From Acidimicrobiales bacterium (GTDB taxonomy: Bacteria > Actinomycetota > Acidimicrobiia > Acidimicrobiales > VFJN01), in NCBI GenBank assembly GCA_035697145.1, contig DASSDL010000080.1, positions 31,562 to 95,561 on the forward strand: a stretch of 64,000 nucleotides of DNA, in the 5' to 3' direction. Both the position numbers and the translations under genes were made by a program. Positions 14,035 to 49,258 of this stretch are shown here, piece by piece; the stretch's first letter is position 1; each line of letters begins with the position of its first letter. Below the pieces are notes generated by a model. That model was not told the DNA's origin. It searched no databases and was given only the letters and a program-made list of their open reading frames with translations.

Positions 14035-17000
14035 ATGGGCCAGCAGACGATGGAGACCCAACTGGACCAAACCAGCTTCGAGGCGCTCGTCGCGTCCGAG
14101 GTCGACGGGCAGATCGCGGCAGACGACCTGTCGGCGCTCGCAGCGCAGCCGCAGCGCTGGGCCGCGACCTTGCACCACATGCTCGAGGAGATCGAGGACA
14201 CGCTGGAGGCAGTGGCGCGCTCGGACCGCTACGAGCGCGACCAGGCACTCGCCGACCTGTCCGACGAGCGCGCCGCTGTCGCGGCTGCACTGCGGCGGGT
14301 GACGGGGGAGGACGTGGATCTTCCCGACCCCACCACCTTGGGCGATGGTGACGACGCGCCCATGGCCACGTCGGGCGAGCCGAAGGCCGAGCTGGTGCAG
14401 GCCCCGGCGCTGCAGGCGTCGTGGGCGCCCGGCGAGGTGGTGCTGTGGGCCGGCAATCCGTCGGCCATGTCCGCCAGCGGCGAGGACCTGCAGCGGCTGA
14501 TCGACGAGGCTGGCGGCTCGGCCATCGAGTGGGAGAAGCACAAGGGCACCCCGCTGCCCTCCGGGGATCGGGCGCCGGCCGTCTCCGCCCCGCTCACCGC
14601 GGCCCTCGGCTGGCTCGTCGGTGTGGGAGCCGGGCAGCTAGCCCTGGATGCCGGGGCCAGCGTGCGTTGGCTCGGCGAGGTGGCGGCCTGGGCCACCGAC
14701 CTGGTGGCGCAGGGTCGCATGGTGCCTACCCTTCGCCGCGGGGGATCCGCCACCGGCCGCGGCCGCCAGCGCAGCGGCTCCTACGTCGTCCAATGGATCG
14801 CTGCCGTCGTCGAACGGCAGCGCATCCGCGAGCTGTCGGTCCGGATGCCCGGCCCAGTTCGGGCCTTCGACCCGTCCACCGGGCCCGAGCGGCTCTGCCG
14901 CACCGTGCTGAACGCCGCGGTCGACGCCGTGTGCCGCGCGGGGGCGGCCCGGCTGGTCACGGCCGCGACCCCGCCGGTGGCGCGTAGCCGCCGCGACGTG
15001 GCCGAGGCCGTGCTGGCGGGGCTGGCAGGCGAGGCGTTCGCTGCCGCCCACGGCCCCGCCACCGAGGTGGCCGACGACCTCCGCCGGTGGGCGGCGCCGG
15101 TGGTGGGGGACGGCGACGTCGGGCTGATCGTGCGGCTCGACCCCCCCGAGGCCGACGGGGGTTGGCTCCTGACCGTGGACGCCACCGGGCTGGAACGCCA
15201 GCCGCTCCCGGTCGAGCAGGCGGTGACGGCGTCCGGCGCCAAGGCCCAACGGGTCGAGGCCCAGCTGCGCCGCCTGGAGCGGCTCCTCCCCGCGCTCGGT
15301 CGCACTGGGCGACGTGGTCACGTCGTCCTCGGGGTCGACGAGGCCTGGGAGCTCATGACCCGCACCGGGCGGGTCATGCAGTCGGTCGGCTTCGACGTGC
15401 GGGTGCCCACCGCGTCGTGGACCCGGCCGTCGCCCCGCCTGCGGCTCGAGGCCGCGGGACCCGCCGGACCCGCCCGGGTGGGGCCCAACCAGCTGTCCAA
15501 GGTCCGCTGGTCGGTGTTGTTCGACGACCTCGAGCTCGATGCCGCCGCCATCGCCCGCCTCACTGCCCAGGCGCGGCCGCTCGTCCGCGCCAAGGGGCGC
15601 TGGGTCGAGCTCGACCACGCCGACCTCGAGGCGGCCGCCAAGGCATTGGCCGAACAGGGCGGGTCCACAGAGCTCGCCGGTGCCGCCATCCTGCGCCACG
15701 CCGTCGGCTTGGAGGAGTGCGCCCTCGCCGGGCCGGCGATGGTGGCCGGCAGCGGTTGGGCCGTCGAGCTGGTGCGGGGTGCCAGCGACGAGCCGCCGGC
15801 GCCGCTCGGTCCGCCCGACGGCTTCGTCGGCAAGCTGCGGAGCTACCAGGCCGAGGCCCGGGGCTGGCTGGCGTTCCTCGATCGGGTGGGGCTCGGTGGC
15901 TGCCTGGCCATGGACATGGGCCTCGGCAAGACCCCGACGATGCTGGCGCACCTGCTGGACACGCGCGGGCAGGGCCCGGTGCTGGTGATCGCCCCGCCCG
16001 CGGTGCTGGGCAACTGGGCGGCCGAGGCCAAGCGGTTCACCCCCGACCTGCGGGTCCAGGTCCACCACGGCGCCGCCCGCGCCGAGGCCGACGAGGTCGC
16101 CGCGGTGGCCGACGACGCCGACGTGGTGCTCACCACGTACGGCACGGCCGTGCGTGACGTCGACGCGCTGGCCACCATCGACTGGCACCGGGTCGTGCTC
16201 GACGAGGCCCAGGCGATCAAGAATCCCGCCAGCGAGGCGGCGCGCGAGCTACGGCGCATTCCAGCCCGGTCACGCCTGGCGCTGACGGGCACTCCGATCG
16301 AGAACGGGCTCGGCGACCTGTGGTCGATCCTCGACTACACCAATCCGGGCCTCGTGGGCCCCCGCCCGGCCTTCATCCAACAACTGTCGACGCCGCGCAA
16401 CGGTTCCGACGCCCCCGGCGAGGCGGCACTGCGGGCCCTGAACGGCCTGCTGGTCTTCCGGCGCACCAAGGCCGAGCCCGAGATCGCCGCCGAGCTGCCC
16501 GACAAGATCGACGAGCTCGACCACTGCGGCATGACCGCCGAGCAGATCGGCCTCTACCAGGCCGTGCTCGACAACCTGCTGGGCGTCAACGTCGGTACCG
16601 AGGACCGCCGATCCCGCACCGGCCAGGTGCTCGCCGCCATCACCGCCCTCAAGCAGATCTGCGACCATCCGGCCGCGTACCTCGACGACGACGAGGGACC
16701 GCTCGAGGGCCGGTCGGGCAAGCTCGCCCGGCTCGACGAGCTCGTCGACAACGTGTTCGCCGCCGGGGAACGCGTGCTGGTGTTCAGCCACTTCGCCCGC
16801 TGGGGGGAGCGCTTGGCCGAGCACCTGACCAAGCGGACCGGTGTCCCCGTGGCCTGCTACCACGGTGGCCTGACCCGGGGCACCCGCGACCGCCTGGTGC
16901 GCGAGTTCCAGGAGGGCACGGGGCCGGGAGCCCTGGTGCTGTCGATCAAGGCCGGAGGGTCGGGGCTCAACCTCACCGCCGCCAACCACGTCGTGCTGTA

Positions 17001-17313
17001 CGACCGCTGGTGGAACCCGGCGGTCGAGGACCAGGCTCGCGACCGAGCCTGGCGCATCGGCCAGGCCAACACGGTCATCAGTCACCGGCTCGTGTGCCCC
17101 GGCACTGTGGACGAGCAGGTGGAGGAGGTCGTGGCGGGCAAGCGCCGCATCGCCGACCTGGTGCTCCCGGCCAGCAGCTCGGTCGGCGACCTCACGCCCG
17201 ACCAGCTGCGTCAGGCGCTGGGCCTGCGTTCGGAGGCGCTGGTGGACGAGACCACCGCCGACACGCTCGCCCACGACCAGGCCGACAAGCCCGACAAGGA
17301 GGCGGCGGCGTGA
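14035..17313 (+). CDS. SNF2/RapA-HelZ-like DEAD/DEAH-box helicase with a long N-terminal SNF2-associated region
   Basis: Motif I LAMDMGLGKT, motif II VLDEAQAIKN, then LALTGTPIENGLGDLWS, and motif VI DRWWNPAVEDQARDRAWRIGQ. Confidence 0.95.
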   Translation: MGQQTMETQLDQTSFEALVASEVDGQIAADDLSALAAQPQRWAATLHHMLEEIEDTLEAVARSDRYERDQALADLSDERAAVAAALRRVTGEDVDLPDPTTLGDGDDAPMATSGEPKAELVQAPALQASWAPGEVVLWAGNPSAMSASGEDLQRLIDEAGGSAIEWEKHKGTPLPSGDRAPAVSAPLTAALGWLVGVGAGQLALDAGASVRWLGEVAAWATDLVAQGRMVPTLRRGGSATGRGRQRSGSYVVQWIAAVVERQRIRELSVRMPGPVRAFDPSTGPERLCRTVLNAAVDAVCRAGAARLVTAATPPVARSRRDVAEAVLAGLAGEAFAAAHGPATEVADDLRRWAAPVVGDGDVGLIVRLDPPEADGGWLLTVDATGLERQPLPVEQAVTASGAKAQRVEAQLRRLERLLPALGRTGRRGHVVLGVDEAWELMTRTGRVMQSVGFDVRVPTASWTRPSPRLRLEAAGPAGPARVGPNQLSKVRWSVLFDDLELDAAAIARLTAQARPLVRAKGRWVELDHADLEAAAKALAEQGGSTELAGAAILRHAVGLEECALAGPAMVAGSGWAVELVRGASDEPPAPLGPPDGFVGKLRSYQAEARGWLAFLDRVGLGGCLAMDMGLGKTPTMLAHLLDTRGQGPVLVIAPPAVLGNWAAEAKRFTPDLRVQVHHGAARAEADEVAAVADDADVVLTTYGTAVRDVDALATIDWHRVVLDEAQAIKNPASEAARELRRIPARSRLALTGTPIENGLGDLWSILDYTNPGLVGPRPAFIQQLSTPRNGSDAPGEAALRALNGLLVFRRTKAEPEIAAELPDKIDELDHCGMTAEQIGLYQAVLDNLLGVNVGTEDRRSRTGQVLAAITALKQICDHPAAYLDDDEGPLEGRSGKLARLDELVDNVFAAGERVLVFSHFARWGERLAEHLTKRTGVPVACYHGGLTRGTRDRLVREFQEGTGPGALVLSIKAGGSGLNLTAANHVVLYDRWWNPAVEDQARDRAWRIGQANTVISHRLVCPGTVDEQVEEVVAGKRRIADLVLPASSSVGDLTPDQLRQALGLRSEALVDETTADTLAHDQADKPDKEAAA

Positions 17314-18217: not shown

Positions 18218-19419
18218 TGGCCGCCGACGATGTCTGGATCCTCGGGATCCATATGACCAAGTTCGGGAAGCATCCGGAGCGGGACACGGTGGATTTGGCG
18301 GCCGAGGCGACGACGGGGGCGCTTGCGGACGCCGGGGTGGGCATGCGCGACATCGGGGTGTTGGCGGCCGGGAATCTGATGGGGGGCGGCGGGGGGATCG
18401 GCCAGCAATTGCAGAAGCAGGTTGGCCAGACGGGGATCCCCGTCTACAACGTGGCCAACGCCTGCGCGACGGGGGCGACGGCGTTGCGCACGGCGATCAT
18501 GGCGCTCAAGGCGGGGGAGTGTGACCTGGGCCTGGCGGTCGGGGTCGAGAAGTTGGCGGGGGCGGGGCTGCTGGCGGGTGGGAACCGCAAGAGCGACGAC
18601 GACACCTGGACACCCAAGGGCCGGTTCGGGGCCGTGGCCCCGATCGATGGCCGGATCGGGACCGAGACAATGCCGGGGGTGTTCGCCCAGATCGGTATGG
18701 AGTACGGGCACCGTTACGGGGGGACGAGTTTCGAGCTGTTCGCGCGGATCAGCGAGAAGAACCACGCCCATTCGACCCTGAACCCGTTGGCGGCATATTC
18801 GAAGCAGTTCACGCTGGCCGAGATCATGGGCGACGTGATGATCGCCTACCCCAACACCCGGCCCATGTGCTCGGCCAACTGCGACGGCGCCGCCGCCGCC
18901 GTGGTGGTCACCGACCAGCGCTTGCGGCGCATGGATCCGGATCAGCGGCGCAGGGCGGTAAAGGTGGCGGCGTCGGTGCTCACCACAGACCCCTGGGAAG
19001 AAGCCTGCCAGGTGCTCCCCAATGTCAACACGCTGACTCGCAACGCCGCCCACCAGGCCTACGAGGCCGCCGGTGTGGCCCCCGAGGACCTCGACCTCGT
19101 CGAGTTGCACGACTGTTTCGCCACCGCCGAACTGGTCCATTACGACAACCTCATGCTCTGCGCCCAGGGCGAAGCCGTGCCGTTCTTCGAGTCCGGGGCC
19201 ACCTGGCGCGACGGCGCCACCCCCGTGAACGTGTCCGGCGGCCTCCAATCCAAGGGCCATCCCATCGCCGCCACCGGCATCGCCAACGTCTGGGAGATCT
19301 GCCACCACCTCCGCGACGAAGCCGGCGACCGCCAGATCCCCGACGCCAAAGTCGGACTCGCCCACGTCATCGGCCTCGGTTCCGCCTGCGGCATCCACAT
19401 CCTCGAGAAGGCCGCATGA
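18217..19419 (+). CDS. thiolase-like / SCP-x type lipid-transfer protein
   Basis: In-frame ATG at 18217 (MAADDVWILGIHMTKFGKHPE...) with VYNVANACATGATALRTA (active-site Cys region). The classic partner of DUF35. Confidence 0.9.
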   Translation: MAADDVWILGIHMTKFGKHPERDTVDLAAEATTGALADAGVGMRDIGVLAAGNLMGGGGGIGQQLQKQVGQTGIPVYNVANACATGATALRTAIMALKAGECDLGLAVGVEKLAGAGLLAGGNRKSDDDTWTPKGRFGAVAPIDGRIGTETMPGVFAQIGMEYGHRYGGTSFELFARISEKNHAHSTLNPLAAYSKQFTLAEIMGDVMIAYPNTRPMCSANCDGAAAAVVVTDQRLRRMDPDQRRRAVKVAASVLTTDPWEEACQVLPNVNTLTRNAAHQAYEAAGVAPEDLDLVELHDCFATAELVHYDNLMLCAQGEAVPFFESGATWRDGATPVNVSGGLQSKGHPIAATGIANVWEICHHLRDEAGDRQIPDAKVGLAHVIGLGSACGIHILEKAA

Positions 19420-19450: not shown

Positions 19451-20974
19451 TCAGAGCAGGCGAAGTTGGCTCGGAGTCGTTGTCGCCGGGGCGTGGTCCG
19501 GCAAAGGATCGCGGCCCGTGTGGTGCCGGGGGTCGGTGCGCCCGGCGGGCAGCCCGCCGCAGCGGCGCACCAGCTCGCGGACGTGCGTCTCCAGCGCCTG
19601 CTGTTCGGCCTTGGGCGCGTAGGCGCGGTCGCGGTAGCGGCGGCGATAGCTCGCCAGGAGGTGGGGATGGGACTCGGCCAGGCGGCCGAGGAACACCTCC
19701 TTCACGCCCGGGCGCAGGTGGAGCAGCACCGAGGAGATGGAGCGGGCGCCGGCGTCCACACACGCCCGCACCACCGCCTCGACCTGTTCGGGACCGTCGG
19801 ACAGGTCGGGTAGCACGGGGGCGACGAGCACGCCGGTGGGCACTCCCGCGGCGTTGAGCTGCTCCACGGCACGCACGCGGTGGGCCGGGTGCGGGGTGCC
19901 CGGCTCGGTGCTACGCCACACCGCCTCGTCGAGCGTGCCGATCGAGAGGTTGACCCGGACATCGGCGCGGCGAGCCGCCTCGGTCAGCAGCTCGACGTCG
20001 CGTAGCACCAGCGTCGACTTGGTCAGGATCGAGAACGGGTTCGCGTGCTCGACCAGCGCCTCGATGATGCCGCGGGTGAGCCGGTACTTGCCCTCGGCTC
20101 GCTGGTAGGGATCGGCGTTGGTGCCCATGGCGATGAGCTCACCGGCCCACCGCCGGGGATCGAGCTCGTGGCGCAACCGCGACACGGCGTTGACCTTGAC
20201 CACGATGCGACGCTCGAAGTCGCGATCGGCATCGAGGTCGAGGTAGGTGTGCGTGGGCCGGGCGAAGCAGTTGTGGCTCACCACACCTTCGGCGATGAAG
20301 TCGCCGGTACCCGTGGTGATGTCGAACAGCGGCACGTCGGCCCCGACCGGATCGATGGCCACCACCCGGCGGCGGGCGCCGCCACTGATGGCCGCGTCGG
20401 CGGGCCCATCGACCGCCTCGGGCCGAATGGCGCGGAAGTCGTCGACGCCGAGCAGCGAATGGTGCCGGGTGAGGTGGGGCCGTGGGCCTGAGCCCAGCCC
20501 GGTGCGGGACACGTGCTTCCAGCCTCGGTCTGTGAGGAACCGATGGTCGCCGCTGGCGACCAGCCGGGTGCCGTCGGCCAGCGTCACCCGGTAGGCGGGC
20601 TTCACGGTCGACCAGTGGTCGATGACCGTGGTCGGGACGCAGCGCCGGCGGACCTCGTCGCGAACCGTGCCGCAGATCTCATCGCCCGGTCGCACATCGG
20701 CCAGCGGCCTGGCGCTGCCGTCGGCCATGAGGATGGGCGTCTCGCCCGCCAGGCAGTACGTGCACGCGTGGCTACAGCCCCGGTAGGCGTTGATGGTGTA
20801 GCGGAACCCGAAGGGCGCCCCCGGCACCTCGTTGATGATGCGCTGGGCCCGCACGTGCAGGAACTCCATGCCGCGGAACTCGCCGCGCCCCGGCTCTCGC
20901 TCGAACACCGGCTCGTCGAACAGCGCCCCCTGGGCCTGAGGCCGATCGGCCTGCCGCCACCGCAACTCCGTCAC
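19451..20974 (-). CDS. Rv2578c/SplB-like radical SAM protein interrupted by a mini-intein
   Basis: YRGCSHACTY-[162 aa]-CFARPTHTYLD. Removing the insert restores CSHACTYCFARPTH (CxxxCxxC). I chose the GTG at 20974 (VTELRWRQ...). The longest track ORF starts at 21040. Confidence 0.85.
   Translation of the reverse strand: MTELRWRQADRPQAQGALFDEPVFEREPGRGEFRGMEFLHVRAQRIINEVPGAPFGFRYTINAYRGCSHACTYCLAGETPILMADGSARPLADVRPGDEICGTVRDEVRRRCVPTTVIDHWSTVKPAYRVTLADGTRLVASGDHRFLTDRGWKHVSRTGLGSGPRPHLTRHHSLLGVDDFRAIRPEAVDGPADAAISGGARRRVVAIDPVGADVPLFDITTGTGDFIAEGVVSHNCFARPTHTYLDLDADRDFERRIVVKVNAVSRLRHELDPRRWAGELIAMGTNADPYQRAEGKYRLTRGIIEALVEHANPFSILTKSTLVLRDVELLTEAARRADVRVNLSIGTLDEAVWRSTEPGTPHPAHRVRAVEQLNAAGVPTGVLVAPVLPDLSDGPEQVEAVVRACVDAGARSISSVLLHLRPGVKEVFLGRLAESHPHLLASYRRRYRDRAYAPKAEQQALETHVRELVRRCGGLPAGRTDPRHHTGRDPLPDHAPATTTPSQLRLL
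20270..20755 (-). mobile_element. class-1 mini-intein (162 aa, no homing endonuclease domain)
   Basis: Starts CLAGETPILMADGSARPLADVRPGDEI (block A) and contains ASGDHRFLT (block B-like). Ends DFIAEGVVSHN and is followed by the Cys+1 extein residue. Coordinates were derived by codon counting from the ORF start and checked on the DNA. Confidence 0.85.
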
Positions 20975-21178
20975 GCATCCGACTATAGCGAACGTATGTA
21001 CGCCAGTGGACGATATTTTCTGGCGCCGCCGGGTTGGCACTCACCGGCGAAGGCGCCGGAGGCCGCGGCTCAGCGATGTCCTTGCGGAGCTGGTTCAGCC
21101 CGGCGCGTTCGTCGACCGAGGGGCCTCCCTTCTCCGAGTGGGCGGCACCGATGGGCCACTGAACCGCAAGCCGTCTCT

Positions 21179-21223: not shown

Positions 21224-21805
21224 GTGGCTCCTCCGCCGAGGTTCTACGAGCTGGACGATGCCAGCGTTCAGCTGCTCGCACATCCCTTGCGGTTACGGCT
21301 ACTGGCCCTCTTGCGGCTCGATGGAGCGTCCACCGCCACCAGGCTCGCGGAGCGCGTAGGTGAGTCGAGCGGTGTGACCAGCTATCACCTTCGCAAGCTG
21401 GCTGACGCCGGCTTTATCGAAGAGGACCCAGGCCGGGGCACCAAGCGCGACCGCTGGTGGAGGTCGGCGCACGAGGCCACGAAGGTCTCACACGCCGACT
21501 TCCTCGGTGACCCGGACGCGCATCGAGCAAGTGTGAGCGTGCGTCGGGAGATCAACCGCTGGCAGCAGCGGCTCGTCGAGCTGTGGCTGGCCGAGGAGGC
21601 CGACTGGGACAAGGCCTGGGTCGACGCCGCAGGATCCAGCGACTGGTTGCTGCGGCTCACCCCTGCCCAGACGAAGGCGCTGAACGAGGAGATCCTCGGC
21701 GTCGTCCGTCGTTACAACGACAACGAAGCACCCGAGGACGATCCCGATGCCGAGCGGGTCGTCTGGTTCCAGCACCTCATCCCTGTGAGCGAGCTGCCGT
21801 TCTGA
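21224..21805 (+). CDS. ArsR-like winged-helix transcriptional regulator
   Basis: LLAHPLRLRLLALLRLDGASTATRLAERVGESSGVTSYHLRKLADAGFIEE. Confidence 0.85.
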   Translation: MAPPPRFYELDDASVQLLAHPLRLRLLALLRLDGASTATRLAERVGESSGVTSYHLRKLADAGFIEEDPGRGTKRDRWWRSAHEATKVSHADFLGDPDAHRASVSVRREINRWQQRLVELWLAEEADWDKAWVDAAGSSDWLLRLTPAQTKALNEEILGVVRRYNDNEAPEDDPDAERVVWFQHLIPVSELPF

Positions 21806-23067
21806 TGCCGGTCGGCGCCACCGCGCTGCGCCGGCGTTACGTACTACTCACAGGATTGCGTTGGCTACCGGTCGGCTTCACAACCCCGCTGCTTGTCCTT
21901 CTGCAGCTGTCACGTGGCCTGACACTGGGGCAGGTCGGCATCACGATGGCCTGCTTCGGGGCCACCACGGCGTTGCTCGAGTTGCCGACGGGTGGCTTGG
22001 CCGACGCTGTCGGGCGCCGGCCGGTGCTAGTGGCGTCGTCGGTCCTGGGGATCGTCGTCTTCGGGTTGATGCTCGTGGCCGACGGTCTAGGGCTATGGAT
22101 CGCGATCAAGCTGTTGGCGGGCGCGGCGCGGGCGCTCGATTCGGGGCCGCTGGAGGCCTGGTATGTCGACGAAGTACGTCGTCTTGATCCAGGCGCCGAC
22201 ATCCGCCAGGGGTTGTCGCGAGGCCATGCGGTTGAAGGCGTGGGTCTTGGGTCCTCGGCCGTGGCCGGTGGCTTGCTGCCGGTTGCCTTCGGCGGCAGCT
22301 TCAACGCTGCGGTCGTCGCAGCCCTTGCGGCCCAGTGCCTTCATCTCGCCGGCTTGCTGGTCCTCATGACCGAGCACCGCACGTTCGACCGAGGGGCGCT
22401 GGCGAGAGCCACCCTTCAGGTACCGGCAGTCATCCGAGCCGGGCTAGCGGTCGGGATGGGACGGGGACCGGTCTCCTGGCTGCTGTGCGGCTCGGCGGTC
22501 TGGGGTGTGGCACTGGTTGGCATCGAGCTCCTGTGGCAGCCGCGCTTCACCGACCTTCTCGGCACCCGATCCGAGACCGGGCCCCTAGGGTTCCTCATGG
22601 CGGGTGCGTTTCTCGCGGCGGCGGCCGGTTCGGCCATGGCGCCACGCCTGGCCCTGCTCGTTGGCGGGGGTACCAGTCACAGCGCCATGGCGTGCACGCT
22701 GGCACAGGCGGCGGTCTACATGGCGTTGGCGGCCGCAGGGTCCTTCGCTATGGCGGCTCCTGCGTTCGTCATCGTGTACCTCCTGAACGGCGCCCGCGGC
22801 CCGTTCCACCATGAGCTGCTACACGAACACGTCGCTGCGGAGCAGCGCACCACGATGTTGTCAGCCGCATCACTGAGCCTGATGGCCGGCGGGTTGGTCA
22901 CCAGCCTGACTCTGCCCGCCCTCGAAGGGGTGGCAGGCATCCCGTGGACCTGGGCACTGGTGGCCGCAGTGCTCGCTACCTCGTCGCTGTTGTACCTGTG
23001 GATCCCCGATCGTCCGGCGCCAATCGCGCCATTCGAGCCCGAGCCAGAGCGAGTCGCGGTCGACTGA
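21805..23067 (+). CDS. MFS transporter
   Basis: In-frame ATG at 21805, overlapping the ArsR stop. Multiple TM helices and the motif-A-like GGLADAVGRRPVLV. Confidence 0.9.
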   Translation: MPVGATALRRRYVLLTGLRWLPVGFTTPLLVLLQLSRGLTLGQVGITMACFGATTALLELPTGGLADAVGRRPVLVASSVLGIVVFGLMLVADGLGLWIAIKLLAGAARALDSGPLEAWYVDEVRRLDPGADIRQGLSRGHAVEGVGLGSSAVAGGLLPVAFGGSFNAAVVAALAAQCLHLAGLLVLMTEHRTFDRGALARATLQVPAVIRAGLAVGMGRGPVSWLLCGSAVWGVALVGIELLWQPRFTDLLGTRSETGPLGFLMAGAFLAAAAGSAMAPRLALLVGGGTSHSAMACTLAQAAVYMALAAAGSFAMAAPAFVIVYLLNGARGPFHHELLHEHVAAEQRTTMLSAASLSLMAGGLVTSLTLPALEGVAGIPWTWALVAAVLATSSLLYLWIPDRPAPIAPFEPEPERVAVD

Positions 23068-24314: not shown

Positions 24315-24745
24315 GGGCCCGGCGCCGGCCGGACGTGGCGGTCCTGGCCGACGTACCCCCCTTCGACCGTTACGCGCGCAGCTCCCTGGCGCCGCTCATT
24401 CCCCACGCCGACCGGTTGCGGGTCGCCGACGGCACCGTCGTAGCACGCGAGGGCCATCGTGCCAGGCAGCTCGTCATCGTGGTGGCCGGCGTTCTGCTCG
24501 CCACCCGCGGCGGGCGTCCGGTCGGGGCATTGGGCCCGGGCACCTGGATCGGCGCCGAGGAACTGCTCGCCGACCGGGCTCACGACTGCACGCTGGTGGC
24601 GGGCGAGGGGTTGGAGGTGCTCGTGCTGAACGGGCCCGCCTACCGCTGGGCGGTCCAGACCTTGCCGGGGCTGGCCGACGTGCGGGTGCTAGACCTGCGG
24701 CGGGTCGAGGCGGCGCTCGAGCAGCAGGCTACGTTCACGGGGTGA
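24311..24745 (+). CDS. stand-alone cyclic-nucleotide-binding (CAP/Crp effector) domain protein
   Basis: LADVPPFDRYARSSLAPLIPHADRLRVADGTVVAREGHRARQLVIVVAGVLL...GPGTWIGAEELL. GTGA overlaps occur at both ends. Confidence 0.7.
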   Translation: MRARRRPDVAVLADVPPFDRYARSSLAPLIPHADRLRVADGTVVAREGHRARQLVIVVAGVLLATRGGRPVGALGPGTWIGAEELLADRAHDCTLVAGEGLEVLVLNGPAYRWAVQTLPGLADVRVLDLRRVEAALEQQATFTG

Positions 24746-25620
24746 CCGAACCAGCCGCCGCCCACGCGGGTACCTCCGAGACCGGGCCGTCACAGGCCGA
24801 CAAGGCCGCGCAGTTCCTCTCGCTGCACGACGGCCCGACCCCGCTGCTCATGCCTAACCCCTGGGACGCGGGGTCGGCCAAGCTGCTCGCCTGGCTCGGG
24901 TTCGAGGCCCTGGCGACCACCAGCAGCGGGTTCGCGGCCACCCTTGGGCGGCTGGACGGATCCGTCAGCCGCGAGGAGGCCCTTGCGCATGCGGCTTCGA
25001 TCGTCGCCGCCACCGACCGGCCCGTGTCGGCCGACCTCGAGAACTGCTTCGCCGACGAACCGGACGGCGTCGCCACGACCGTCCGTCTGGCGGTCGACGC
25101 GGGGCTGGCCGGGTGCTCTGTCGAGGACTTCAGCCAGCGGCCCGACGACCCGATCTACGACGCGGGGCTGGCCGCCGAGCGGGTGGCGGCTGCCACCGAG
25201 GCTGCCCATGCCGGCCCGGTCCACTTCGTGATCACTGCGCGCGCCGAGAACTACATCCGTGGCCGCCGGGACCTCGCCGACACCATCGCCCGGCTGCAGG
25301 CCTACCAGGAAGCGGGCGCCGACGTGCTGTTCGCGCCCGGGCTGAGCGACCTCGATGACGTACGCCAGGTGGTGGCGTCGGTCGACCGGCCGGTCAATGT
25401 GCTCCCCTGGCAGGGTGGCCCCACGGTGGCCCAGCTGGGCGAGGTCGGGGTTCGGCGCATCTCGGTGGGCGGAGCGTTCGCATTCGCCGCGCTGGGCAGT
25501 GTGGTCGACGCAGCCCGCGAACTACGCGAGCAGGGTACCTATGGGTTCCGCGAGCGCTCCCGCGTCGGGCTGACGGCGGTGAGGGACGCGTTCGCCGACA
25601 CCCAGAGGAGCGCACCATGA
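24742..25620 (+). CDS. isocitrate lyase / PEP mutase family protein (methylisocitrate-lyase-like)
   Basis: LLMPNPWDAGSAKLLAWLGFEALATTSSGFA...DLENCFADEP...GCSVEDF. Confidence 0.9.
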   Translation: MTEPAAAHAGTSETGPSQADKAAQFLSLHDGPTPLLMPNPWDAGSAKLLAWLGFEALATTSSGFAATLGRLDGSVSREEALAHAASIVAATDRPVSADLENCFADEPDGVATTVRLAVDAGLAGCSVEDFSQRPDDPIYDAGLAAERVAAATEAAHAGPVHFVITARAENYIRGRRDLADTIARLQAYQEAGADVLFAPGLSDLDDVRQVVASVDRPVNVLPWQGGPTVAQLGEVGVRRISVGGAFAFAALGSVVDAARELREQGTYGFRERSRVGLTAVRDAFADTQRSAP

Positions 25621-48481: not shown

Positions 48482-49258
48482 GTGACAACGACCCTGGCGG
48501 CGGTCGCCGAACGATTGTTCGACGATGCCAGTCTCTTTCCTCCCGCCCGCCTTCCCATGGCCGCGGCGCTGGCCGCTCACCAGCGCCTCCGCCAAGGCCC
48601 GCTGGCGCCCATGGTGGGCCCGTTCCTCTATCCGGCGTCACGGTTCGACGAGCTCGAGGCCGGCCTGTCCTCGGGCCTGCCTCGGCCTCCGGAGCTCGGC
48701 GTCATCGCCTACGACGGCGACGCCCCCTGGGCGATCATCTACGCCACGCCGGGGATCGTGCAGGTCGAGGCGCCCCAGTCCGCGCGGCCGCCCGAGCCCC
48801 CTCGGGGCGTGCGGCGCTACGTCGAGATCGCCCCCCAGGCCGATGCCGGGGCGATGGCCGCTGGTCTCGACGAGGTGGCCGCCACCGGGGCCCGGGCCAA
48901 GGTGCGCTGCGGCGGGCTGACACCCGACGACGTGCCCAGCTGCGACTGGCTGGCGGCGGCGCTCGCAGGCTGCGTCGAGCGGGGGATCACGCTGAAGGCC
49001 ACCGCCGGCCTCCACCACCCCTTCCGCTCCACCGGGCCCGACGGCCCCCGGCACGGCCTGGTCAACCTGCTGGCTGCGGCCGGCGCCGCTCACGCCGGTG
49101 CCGACGCCGCGACGCTGAGCGAGATCCTGGCCGTCGAGGGGGACGCGACGCCGACGTTGCTGGAGCGAGTCGCGGATGCCCGGGAGGTGCTCGCATCGGT
49201 GGGCACGTGCTCGATCGACGAGACGGTCGAGGGGCTCGCTGCGCGGGGCCTGCTCTAA
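48482..49258 (+). CDS. uncharacterised conserved-looking protein between hmgA and fahA
   Basis: GTG at 48482, 6 nt after GGAGG. 258 aa with coding-type composition. I recognise no family (notable segments KVRCGGLTPDDVPS and LKATAGLHHPFR). It ends 1 nt before the fahA start. Confidence 0.7.
   Translation: MTTTLAAVAERLFDDASLFPPARLPMAAALAAHQRLRQGPLAPMVGPFLYPASRFDELEAGLSSGLPRPPELGVIAYDGDAPWAIIYATPGIVQVEAPQSARPPEPPRGVRRYVEIAPQADAGAMAAGLDEVAATGARAKVRCGGLTPDDVPSCDWLAAALAGCVERGITLKATAGLHHPFRSTGPDGPRHGLVNLLAAAGAAHAGADAATLSEILAVEGDATPTLLERVADAREVLASVGTCSIDETVEGLAARGLL

Follow-up and report, generated by a model that had tools for sequence, protein, structure and literature searches.

A mini-intein, very probably of class 1, at the cluster-binding motif of an Rv2578c-type radical SAM gene in an Acidimicrobiales genome

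Inteins that interrupt radical S-adenosylmethionine (SAM) genes of the SplB/COG1533 group have been catalogued before. The survey of Novikova et al. (2016, MBE 33:783, PMC4760082) reports 48 of them, by its account in Actinobacteria only, and NCBIfam holds a curated 'exception' model, NF038136, entitled 'intein-containing Rv2578c family radical SAM protein'. Here we describe a further copy, encoded at positions 20270-20755 on the minus strand of a 64,000-nucleotide stretch of DNA from an Acidimicrobiales bacterium (GenBank assembly GCA_035697145.1, contig DASSDL010000080.1, positions 31,562 to 95,561); the whole of this stretch is called the window, and positions are numbered within it unless another locus is named. 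The window copy lies in the same host family as the catalogued inteins, is homologous to them and shares their insertion point, CxxxCxx/C, but it differs from them in its Acidimicrobiia origin, and about 104 positions of the NF038136 profile, in the endonuclease region, are absent from it. We consider it very probable that the insert is a class 1 mini-intein descended from a LAGLIDADG homing intein that targeted the CxxxCxxC-coding DNA of Rv2578c/PA0069 (COG1533) radical SAM genes.

An intein at this site is already catalogued, in NCBIfam and in the published survey, and the window copy is an ordinary, immobilised member of its group. An earlier reading of the window from its letters alone (the sequence-only reading) had known of no characterised intein here; NF038136 and the 48 SplB/COG1533 inteins overturn this at the level of catalogues, whereas for biochemistry it stands, since literature searches on Rv2578c inteins and on radical SAM inteins found no dedicated or biochemical study. 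A Campylobacter phage paper returned by these searches mentions radical SAM proteins and inteins, though never together. The value of the window copy as a discovery is small, the allele having been catalogued by NCBI, counted in a survey and found in hundreds of species. Its experimental value is that the +1 nucleophile is a [4Fe-4S] ligand, that the four junction cysteines include a CxxC and that the host is apparently LexA-regulated. Cultured actinomycetes between them provide full-length, decayed, mini and empty alleles, and the site offers a convenient natural test of inteins as redox- or cofactor-sensing switches versus parasites stuck in conserved motifs.

Boundaries and identity of the insert

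The precursor, a radical SAM protein of the Rv2578c/COG1533 type, is encoded at 19451-20974 on the minus strand (507 aa plus stop), as delimited by the open reading frame (ORF), the lengths of homologues and upstream signals. The N-extein (20756-20974, 73 aa) ends in C(-7)SHAC(-3)TY, which holds the first two cluster cysteines (codons 20756-20776), and the C-extein (19454-20269, 272 aa) opens with Cys+1 (codon 20267-20269), followed by FARPTH. Between them lie the 162 residues of the insert, from Cys1 to His161-Asn162, corresponding to residues 96-257 of the longer ORF 19451-21040, in which the region reads GCSHACTY-CLAGETPILMADG...GDHRFLT...DFIAEGVVSHN-CFARPTH; the ends of the insert are CLAGETP…VVSHN, flanked by CSHACTY and CFARPTH. 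The coordinates (20755→20270, minus strand, 162 aa) and the sequence given in the sequence-only reading were exact. Removal of the insert in silico leaves CSHACTYCFARPTH, with the radical SAM CxxxCxxC motif intact, and the ligated junction peptide predicted from splicing is ...GCSHACTYCFARPTH... (ACTYCFARPTH). The proposal that excision recreates CxxxCxxC agrees with the same motif being uninterrupted in 51 empty alleles (see below) and, because these read CxxxCxxCFARPTH, Cys+1, which is found in every occupied allele, is the third cluster-ligating cysteine, as had also been proposed.

Within the insert, the N-terminal splicing region (residues 1-100; 20456-20755, minus strand) carries block A, C1-L-A-G-E-T6, and block B, S68-G-D-H71, and the C-terminal splicing region (residues 129-162; 20270-20371, minus strand) carries block F, LFD145ITTGTGDF, and block G, GVVSH161N162; the two are joined by a variable linker (residues 101-128; 20372-20455, minus strand). 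Little or no variation is seen at residues C1, T6, G13, S68, H71, D145, H161, N162 and C+1 in alignments of 60 and 27 sequences. Neither alignment varies at S68, D145 (position F:4), H161 or N162; H71 is constant in one alignment, A2, and is shared by at least 90 % of the sequences of the other, A1, and Cys1 occurs in all 145 extracted inteins. Assignment to class 3 was considered and rejected, as the WCT triplet of Trp B:12, Cys F:4 and Thr G:5 is absent, F:4 is Asp145, G:5 is Ser160 and Cys1 is present. An assembly artefact as the origin of the insert was also rejected.

The AlphaFold2 model of the insert, built on 60 homologues, is all-beta, with a predicted local distance difference test score (pLDDT) of 90.9 and a predicted template-modelling score (pTM) of 0.87; the lowest pLDDT values, 63-79, are those of the linker. 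Its top Foldseek matches in the PDB are all inteins or Hint domains (probability 1.00), the best being the Npu DnaB mini-intein 4o1r (E-value 4e-8, template-modelling score TMt 0.84, root-mean-square deviation 2.2 Å). This intein, the Ssp DnaB intein 1mi8 and the splicing domain of Mtu RecA are the closest solved structures (TMt 0.75-0.84, approximately 20 % identity). They resemble the window intein in belonging to class 1, in starting with Cys1 and in being naturally or artificially endonuclease-free, but they reside in unrelated P-loop hosts, where the +1 residue is not a metal ligand. Among sequence profiles, NF038136 is the best match of the window precursor (605.9 bits), its alignment spanning intein residues 1-114 and 122-162, both junctions and both exteins, and the N-terminal intein model TIGR01445 of NCBIfam is passed by the insert (25.2 bits against a cut-off of 24.5). 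The Hint-fold model, the intein matches in the PDB, the NF038136 match and the occupation of the same junction in 28 alleles together bear out the sequence-only proposal of a mini-intein inside CxxxCxxC.

Several points weigh against this identification. The insert scores 24.9 bits on Pfam Intein_splicing (PF14890), below the gathering score of 35.8, and 13.9 bits on the C-terminal intein model TIGR01443, below 15.6; block B reads S-x-x-H, with Ser where Thr is usual; the window protein falls under the cut-offs of both NF038136 (605.9 < 700) and NF038135 (382.6 < 430); and splicing experiments for any member of this allele are absent from the literature searched. Taken by themselves, the sequence profiles would make the insert a borderline intein, and the profile check suggested by the sequence-only reading ended with one model passed, two below cut-off and a fold match with inteins. 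The shortfall on NF038136 reflects lineage divergence and not the deletion alone, because a full-length Acidimicrobiia allele, that of Aquihabitans, also misses the cut-off (663 bits) whereas the mini-intein allele of Amycolatopsis passes it (832 bits), as does a Dactylosporangium allele (858 bits).

A search of the window in all six frames with a hidden Markov model (HMM) of mini-inteins found no further copies. We note that intein Cys28 (20671-20673) and Cys39 (20638-20640) are extra cysteines of the window's clade, most relatives having Tyr at both positions (…VYGT…RRYVPT…), and that the two substitutions are not strictly coupled between species.

Alleles, endonuclease loss and selection

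The alleles were surveyed in 80 genomes, each representing a species, that were retrieved with the whole protein as query. The motif is uninterrupted (CSHACxYCFARPTH) in 51, 28 carry an insert at the exact junction and one is unscored. Related genomes hold both empty and occupied alleles, and the insertion is clean, in line with what the sequence-only reading had looked for. In the extein tree the window gene belongs to a clade of ten species, every one of which has a mini-intein of 154-165 aa, and the sister clade (L016, L018 and L020), which is 78-81 % identical, is empty; occupancy is patchy across the rest of the tree. The G+C content of the intein (72.4 %) is close to that of the host gene (71.9 %), and the G+C content at third codon positions likewise matches. 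The window copy is vertically inherited within its Acidimicrobiales clade.

A profile of the splicing domain matched at least 592 species genomes, and in all 80 loci inspected among the matches listed the host is the same and the junction reads NPYRGCxHxCxYC/intein/C[FY]AR. Cultured carriers among these matches are Amycolatopsis, Actinoplanes, Plantactinospora, Dactylosporangium, Microbacterium, Cellulosimicrobium cellulans and Aquihabitans. The matches listed also include genomes from outside the Actinomycetota, namely Steroidobacteraceae, a proteobacterial metagenome-assembled genome (MAG), Myxococcota, Thermoanaerobaculia and Tepidisphaeraceae, in which the intein sits at the same junction of PA0069-family genes (CEHGCxYC/.../CYARPSH). 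In each of these loci (L093, L102, L108, L120, L123, L132 and L150) the intein lies at about 1501-1980 of the locus, and L120 scores 467 bits on NF033668 against a cut-off of 360. The presence of the intein outside the Actinomycetota, set beside the Actinobacteria-only distribution of the 2016 survey, makes transfer of the intein across phyla likely.

Each of the 120 best database homologues has an intein at the same site. By length these inteins form a short group of 144-168 aa, a series graded from 176 to 311 aa and a long group with its mode at 342-346 aa. The relatives of 342-346 aa match Pfam LAGLIDADG_3 (PF14528) and have the two motifs GYLCGxxRGDG and GFLAGxFDAEGS, and the inteins of 176-311 aa represent graded decay of the endonuclease. 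Alignment to the long relatives shows that the window copy is without about 183 aa between ...SLLGVDDF and RAIRPEA..., and between its blocks B and F there is only a linker of approximately 28 aa and no homing endonuclease domain. That the insert is too short for a homing endonuclease, as the sequence-only reading held, is upheld by this short linker, at the place where the 342-346-aa relatives carry their two LAGLIDADG motifs. The linker, residues 101-128, is by this alignment the scar of a deleted LAGLIDADG endonuclease domain of about 183 aa.

The ratio of nonsynonymous to synonymous substitution rates (dN/dS) was compared by region among the window gene and those of nine close species. It is lowest in the N-extein (0.04), rises through the C-extein (0.15), intein residues 1-100 (0.16) and intein residues 129-162 (0.27), and reaches 0.62 in the linker 101-128, dS being equal in intein and exteins (0.44-0.48). 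The splicing regions are thus under purifying selection comparable to that on the host protein. The window copy is at a late stage of the homing cycle, with the endonuclease lost, the intein immobile and co-inherited with its host, and the splicing domain maintained: having lost its endonuclease it is no longer able to home, and splicing competence is kept by selection because the host enzyme needs the intein to be removed.

Splicing and possible gating at the junction

From the conserved residues and established intein chemistry we infer that this protein would follow the class 1 pathway. After translation, the Hint domain would convert the peptide bond between Tyr(-1) and Cys1 into a thioester (N-S shift), the N-extein would be moved onto Cys+1 by transthioesterification, cyclization of Asn162 would free the intein, and an S-to-N shift would give a 345-aa enzyme with the motif intact, in which the splicing nucleophile Cys+1 would go on to act as the third [4Fe-4S] ligand. 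Splicing probably does take place, with indirect support from the purifying selection on the splicing regions, and the unspliced precursor would be inactive; it is also plausible, though less certain than the sequence-only reading had it, that the precursor is unable to bind its cluster. The precursor nevertheless still reads C-x3-C-x2-C, with intein Cys1 standing in for Cys+1, and binding of a metal or cluster by this pseudo-motif may therefore be possible. The AlphaFold2 model of the precursor is of reasonable confidence for the intein and for most of the barrel, and both junction loops, 67-72 and 236-252, have pLDDT values below 50.

Loss of the endonuclease, the below-threshold scores of generic intein HMMs and a broken ORF inside the intein of a related locus could all be taken as signs that the insert is dead, its Hint domain no longer splicing and the gene a decaying pseudogene or its product inactive. 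In the related locus, L030 (6001-8008 of that locus), the intein is of the full-length kind but the ORF ends after 147 aa, which points either to a pseudogene or to a frameshift error, the MAG having been assembled from long reads. However, the window ORF is intact, with a conserved promoter and LexA-like box upstream, all catalytic residues are invariant, and dN/dS over the ten species ranges from 0.04 to 0.15 for the exteins and from 0.16 to 0.27 for the splicing regions, so that a dead insert seems highly improbable. Even less credit can be given to a Hint-like domain that stays permanently in the mature protein and acts there, for instance as an autoproteolytic module or a bacterial intein-like (BIL) domain. 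Such a domain would account for the BIL2 and hedgehog Hint domains among the fold matches, but the insert breaks an essential cofactor motif which the 51 empty alleles have in one piece, its class 1 set is complete, down to the Cys+1 nucleophile and the terminal His-Asn, and its relatives carry a homing endonuclease, as is typical of true inteins.

A spliced class 1 mini-intein therefore remains the preferred reading, and a further proposal would add to it. Four cysteines, C-7, C-3, C1 and C+1, are clustered at the junction, C(-3)-T-Y-C1 forming a CxxC across its N-terminal side, and the pairing of Cys(-3) with Cys1 is universal in occupied alleles. The intein could be a conditional one, its splicing dependent on redox state or on the availability of Fe-S or metal through a Cys(-3)/Cys1 disulfide trap or through the cluster- or metal-binding pseudo-motif C(-7)x3C(-3)x2C1, and an oxygen-sensitive, SOS-induced enzyme would then be kept inactive, as the precursor, until its surroundings become reducing. 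The four-cysteine arrangement, present in every occupied allele, can be counted in favour of gating, as can retention of the splicing domain across many lineages long after loss of the endonuclease; but the cysteine layout follows inevitably from the insertion site, and since it is forced in this way it is no evidence of adaptation, while the retention is also explained simply by the difficulty of precise deletion. Homing endonucleases, moreover, favour conserved motifs with or without benefit to the host, the intein is patchily distributed, and close relatives thrive with the gene uninterrupted. We regard a conditional intein as unlikely, and give somewhat less weight again to a fully fledged Fe-S/redox checkpoint, in which Cys1 would complete a decoy C-x3-C-x2-C (binding metal or cluster, or forming a Cys-3/Cys1 disulfide) and so block the N-S acyl shift until the cell is reducing. 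If such a checkpoint were real, maturation of an SOS-induced and oxygen-labile repair enzyme of the radical SAM type would wait until its cluster can be loaded.

There is precedent for redox control at such junctions in the MoaA intein of Pyrococcus abyssi, in which a native Cys-3/Cys1 disulfide is reported to block splicing until it is reduced, and a Cys1/Cys+1 disulfide has been reported for the Pab PolII intein (both as related in the reviews PMC3922620 and PMC10663303). As described there, the MoaA intein is also found in an oxygen-labile radical SAM enzyme and has Cys at -3, a catalytic Cys1 and the same CxxC geometry, although its host is archaeal and of the MoaA family, whereas that of the window is bacterial and of the Rv2578c type. 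By this analogy Cys-3/Cys1 would be a better-precedented redox pair than the Cys1/Cys+1 pair alone, which the sequence-only reading had suggested. A genome scan for a guessed MoaA junction, HN/CHREG, gave 30 matches, all of them random short ORFs and none from Pyrococcus.

The host gene, its upstream region and neighbours

In the list of ORFs for the window the longest on the minus strand at this place is 19451-21040. Translation probably begins at the GTG at 20974, for a product of 507 aa, and not at 21040, because close homologues are 503-516 aa long and a conserved promoter-like element lies directly upstream. In the spliced sequence, with its motif restored, the radical SAM domain PF04055 scores 51 bits against a threshold of 29.5 over profile positions 1-157; in the unspliced precursor the Pfam match is split. 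The top NCBIfam family for the spliced host is NF038135 (Rv2578c family radical SAM), with 382.6 bits and thus below the cut-off of 430, followed by the PA0069 family with 249.9 bits, and to judge from these scores the host is a divergent orthologue or a sister group of the Rv2578c family.

Comparison of the precursor model with the PDB gave spore photoproduct lyase (4fhg, 4rh0) as the best non-intein fold match for the extein part (E-value about 2e-5, approximately 255 aligned columns), and no meaningful sequence match for the spliced host was found among solved structures in the PDB. The host and spore photoproduct lyase are both radical SAM enzymes with CxxxCxxC, but their similarity is at the fold level only. 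Orthology to spore photoproduct lyase was rejected, the scores on TIGR04070 (24.8 against 400) and PF20903 (18.6 against 27) both being below threshold.

Acidimicrobiia alleles score 360-383 bits on NF038135, all under the cut-off of 430. Public sources give these alleles no label beyond 'radical SAM protein' or 'DNA repair photolyase' and do not mention the intein. The annotation of the Acidimicrobiia copies is generic because their scores lie under the curated NF038136 and NF038135 cut-offs (606 and 663 bits, against 700, on the former).

Upstream of the gene, at 20982-21002 on the minus strand, there is a palindrome resembling a LexA/SOS box, CGTACATACGTTCG (20989-21002), followed by a hexamer resembling a -10 element, TATAGT (20982-20987), which is 7 nt before the GTG start. 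Box and hexamer are in the same place in 18 of the 18 anchored homologous loci, occupied or empty, and the box is a perfect GAAC-N4-GTTC in eight of these. In Mycobacterium tuberculosis, Rv2578c has a RecA-dependent LexA peak in chromatin immunoprecipitation sequencing (PMC3381160). Together with this peak, the conserved elements at the start suggest that the host gene is probably SOS-regulated and its transcript leaderless, and the host is likely to be a DNA-damage-inducible radical SAM enzyme. An SOS-regulated host would fit the bias of inteins towards replication and repair proteins that is reported in PMC4760082. The only perfect CGAAC-N4-GTTCG in the window is elsewhere, at 48508-48521, just inside a candidate ORF (48482-49258, plus strand) that matches no Pfam family, where it may be a coincidence of the coding sequence.

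No functional link to the radical SAM gene is evident for any of the neighbouring genes, which lie at 14035-17313, 18220-19419, 21224-23067 and 24742-25620 on the plus strand. They encode, in this order, a helicase of the SNF2 family with DUF3670, a thiolase-like protein, an ArsR/HTH_20 regulator that is divergently transcribed and precedes a major facilitator superfamily (MFS) transporter, and an enzyme of the phosphoenolpyruvate (PEP)-mutase family.

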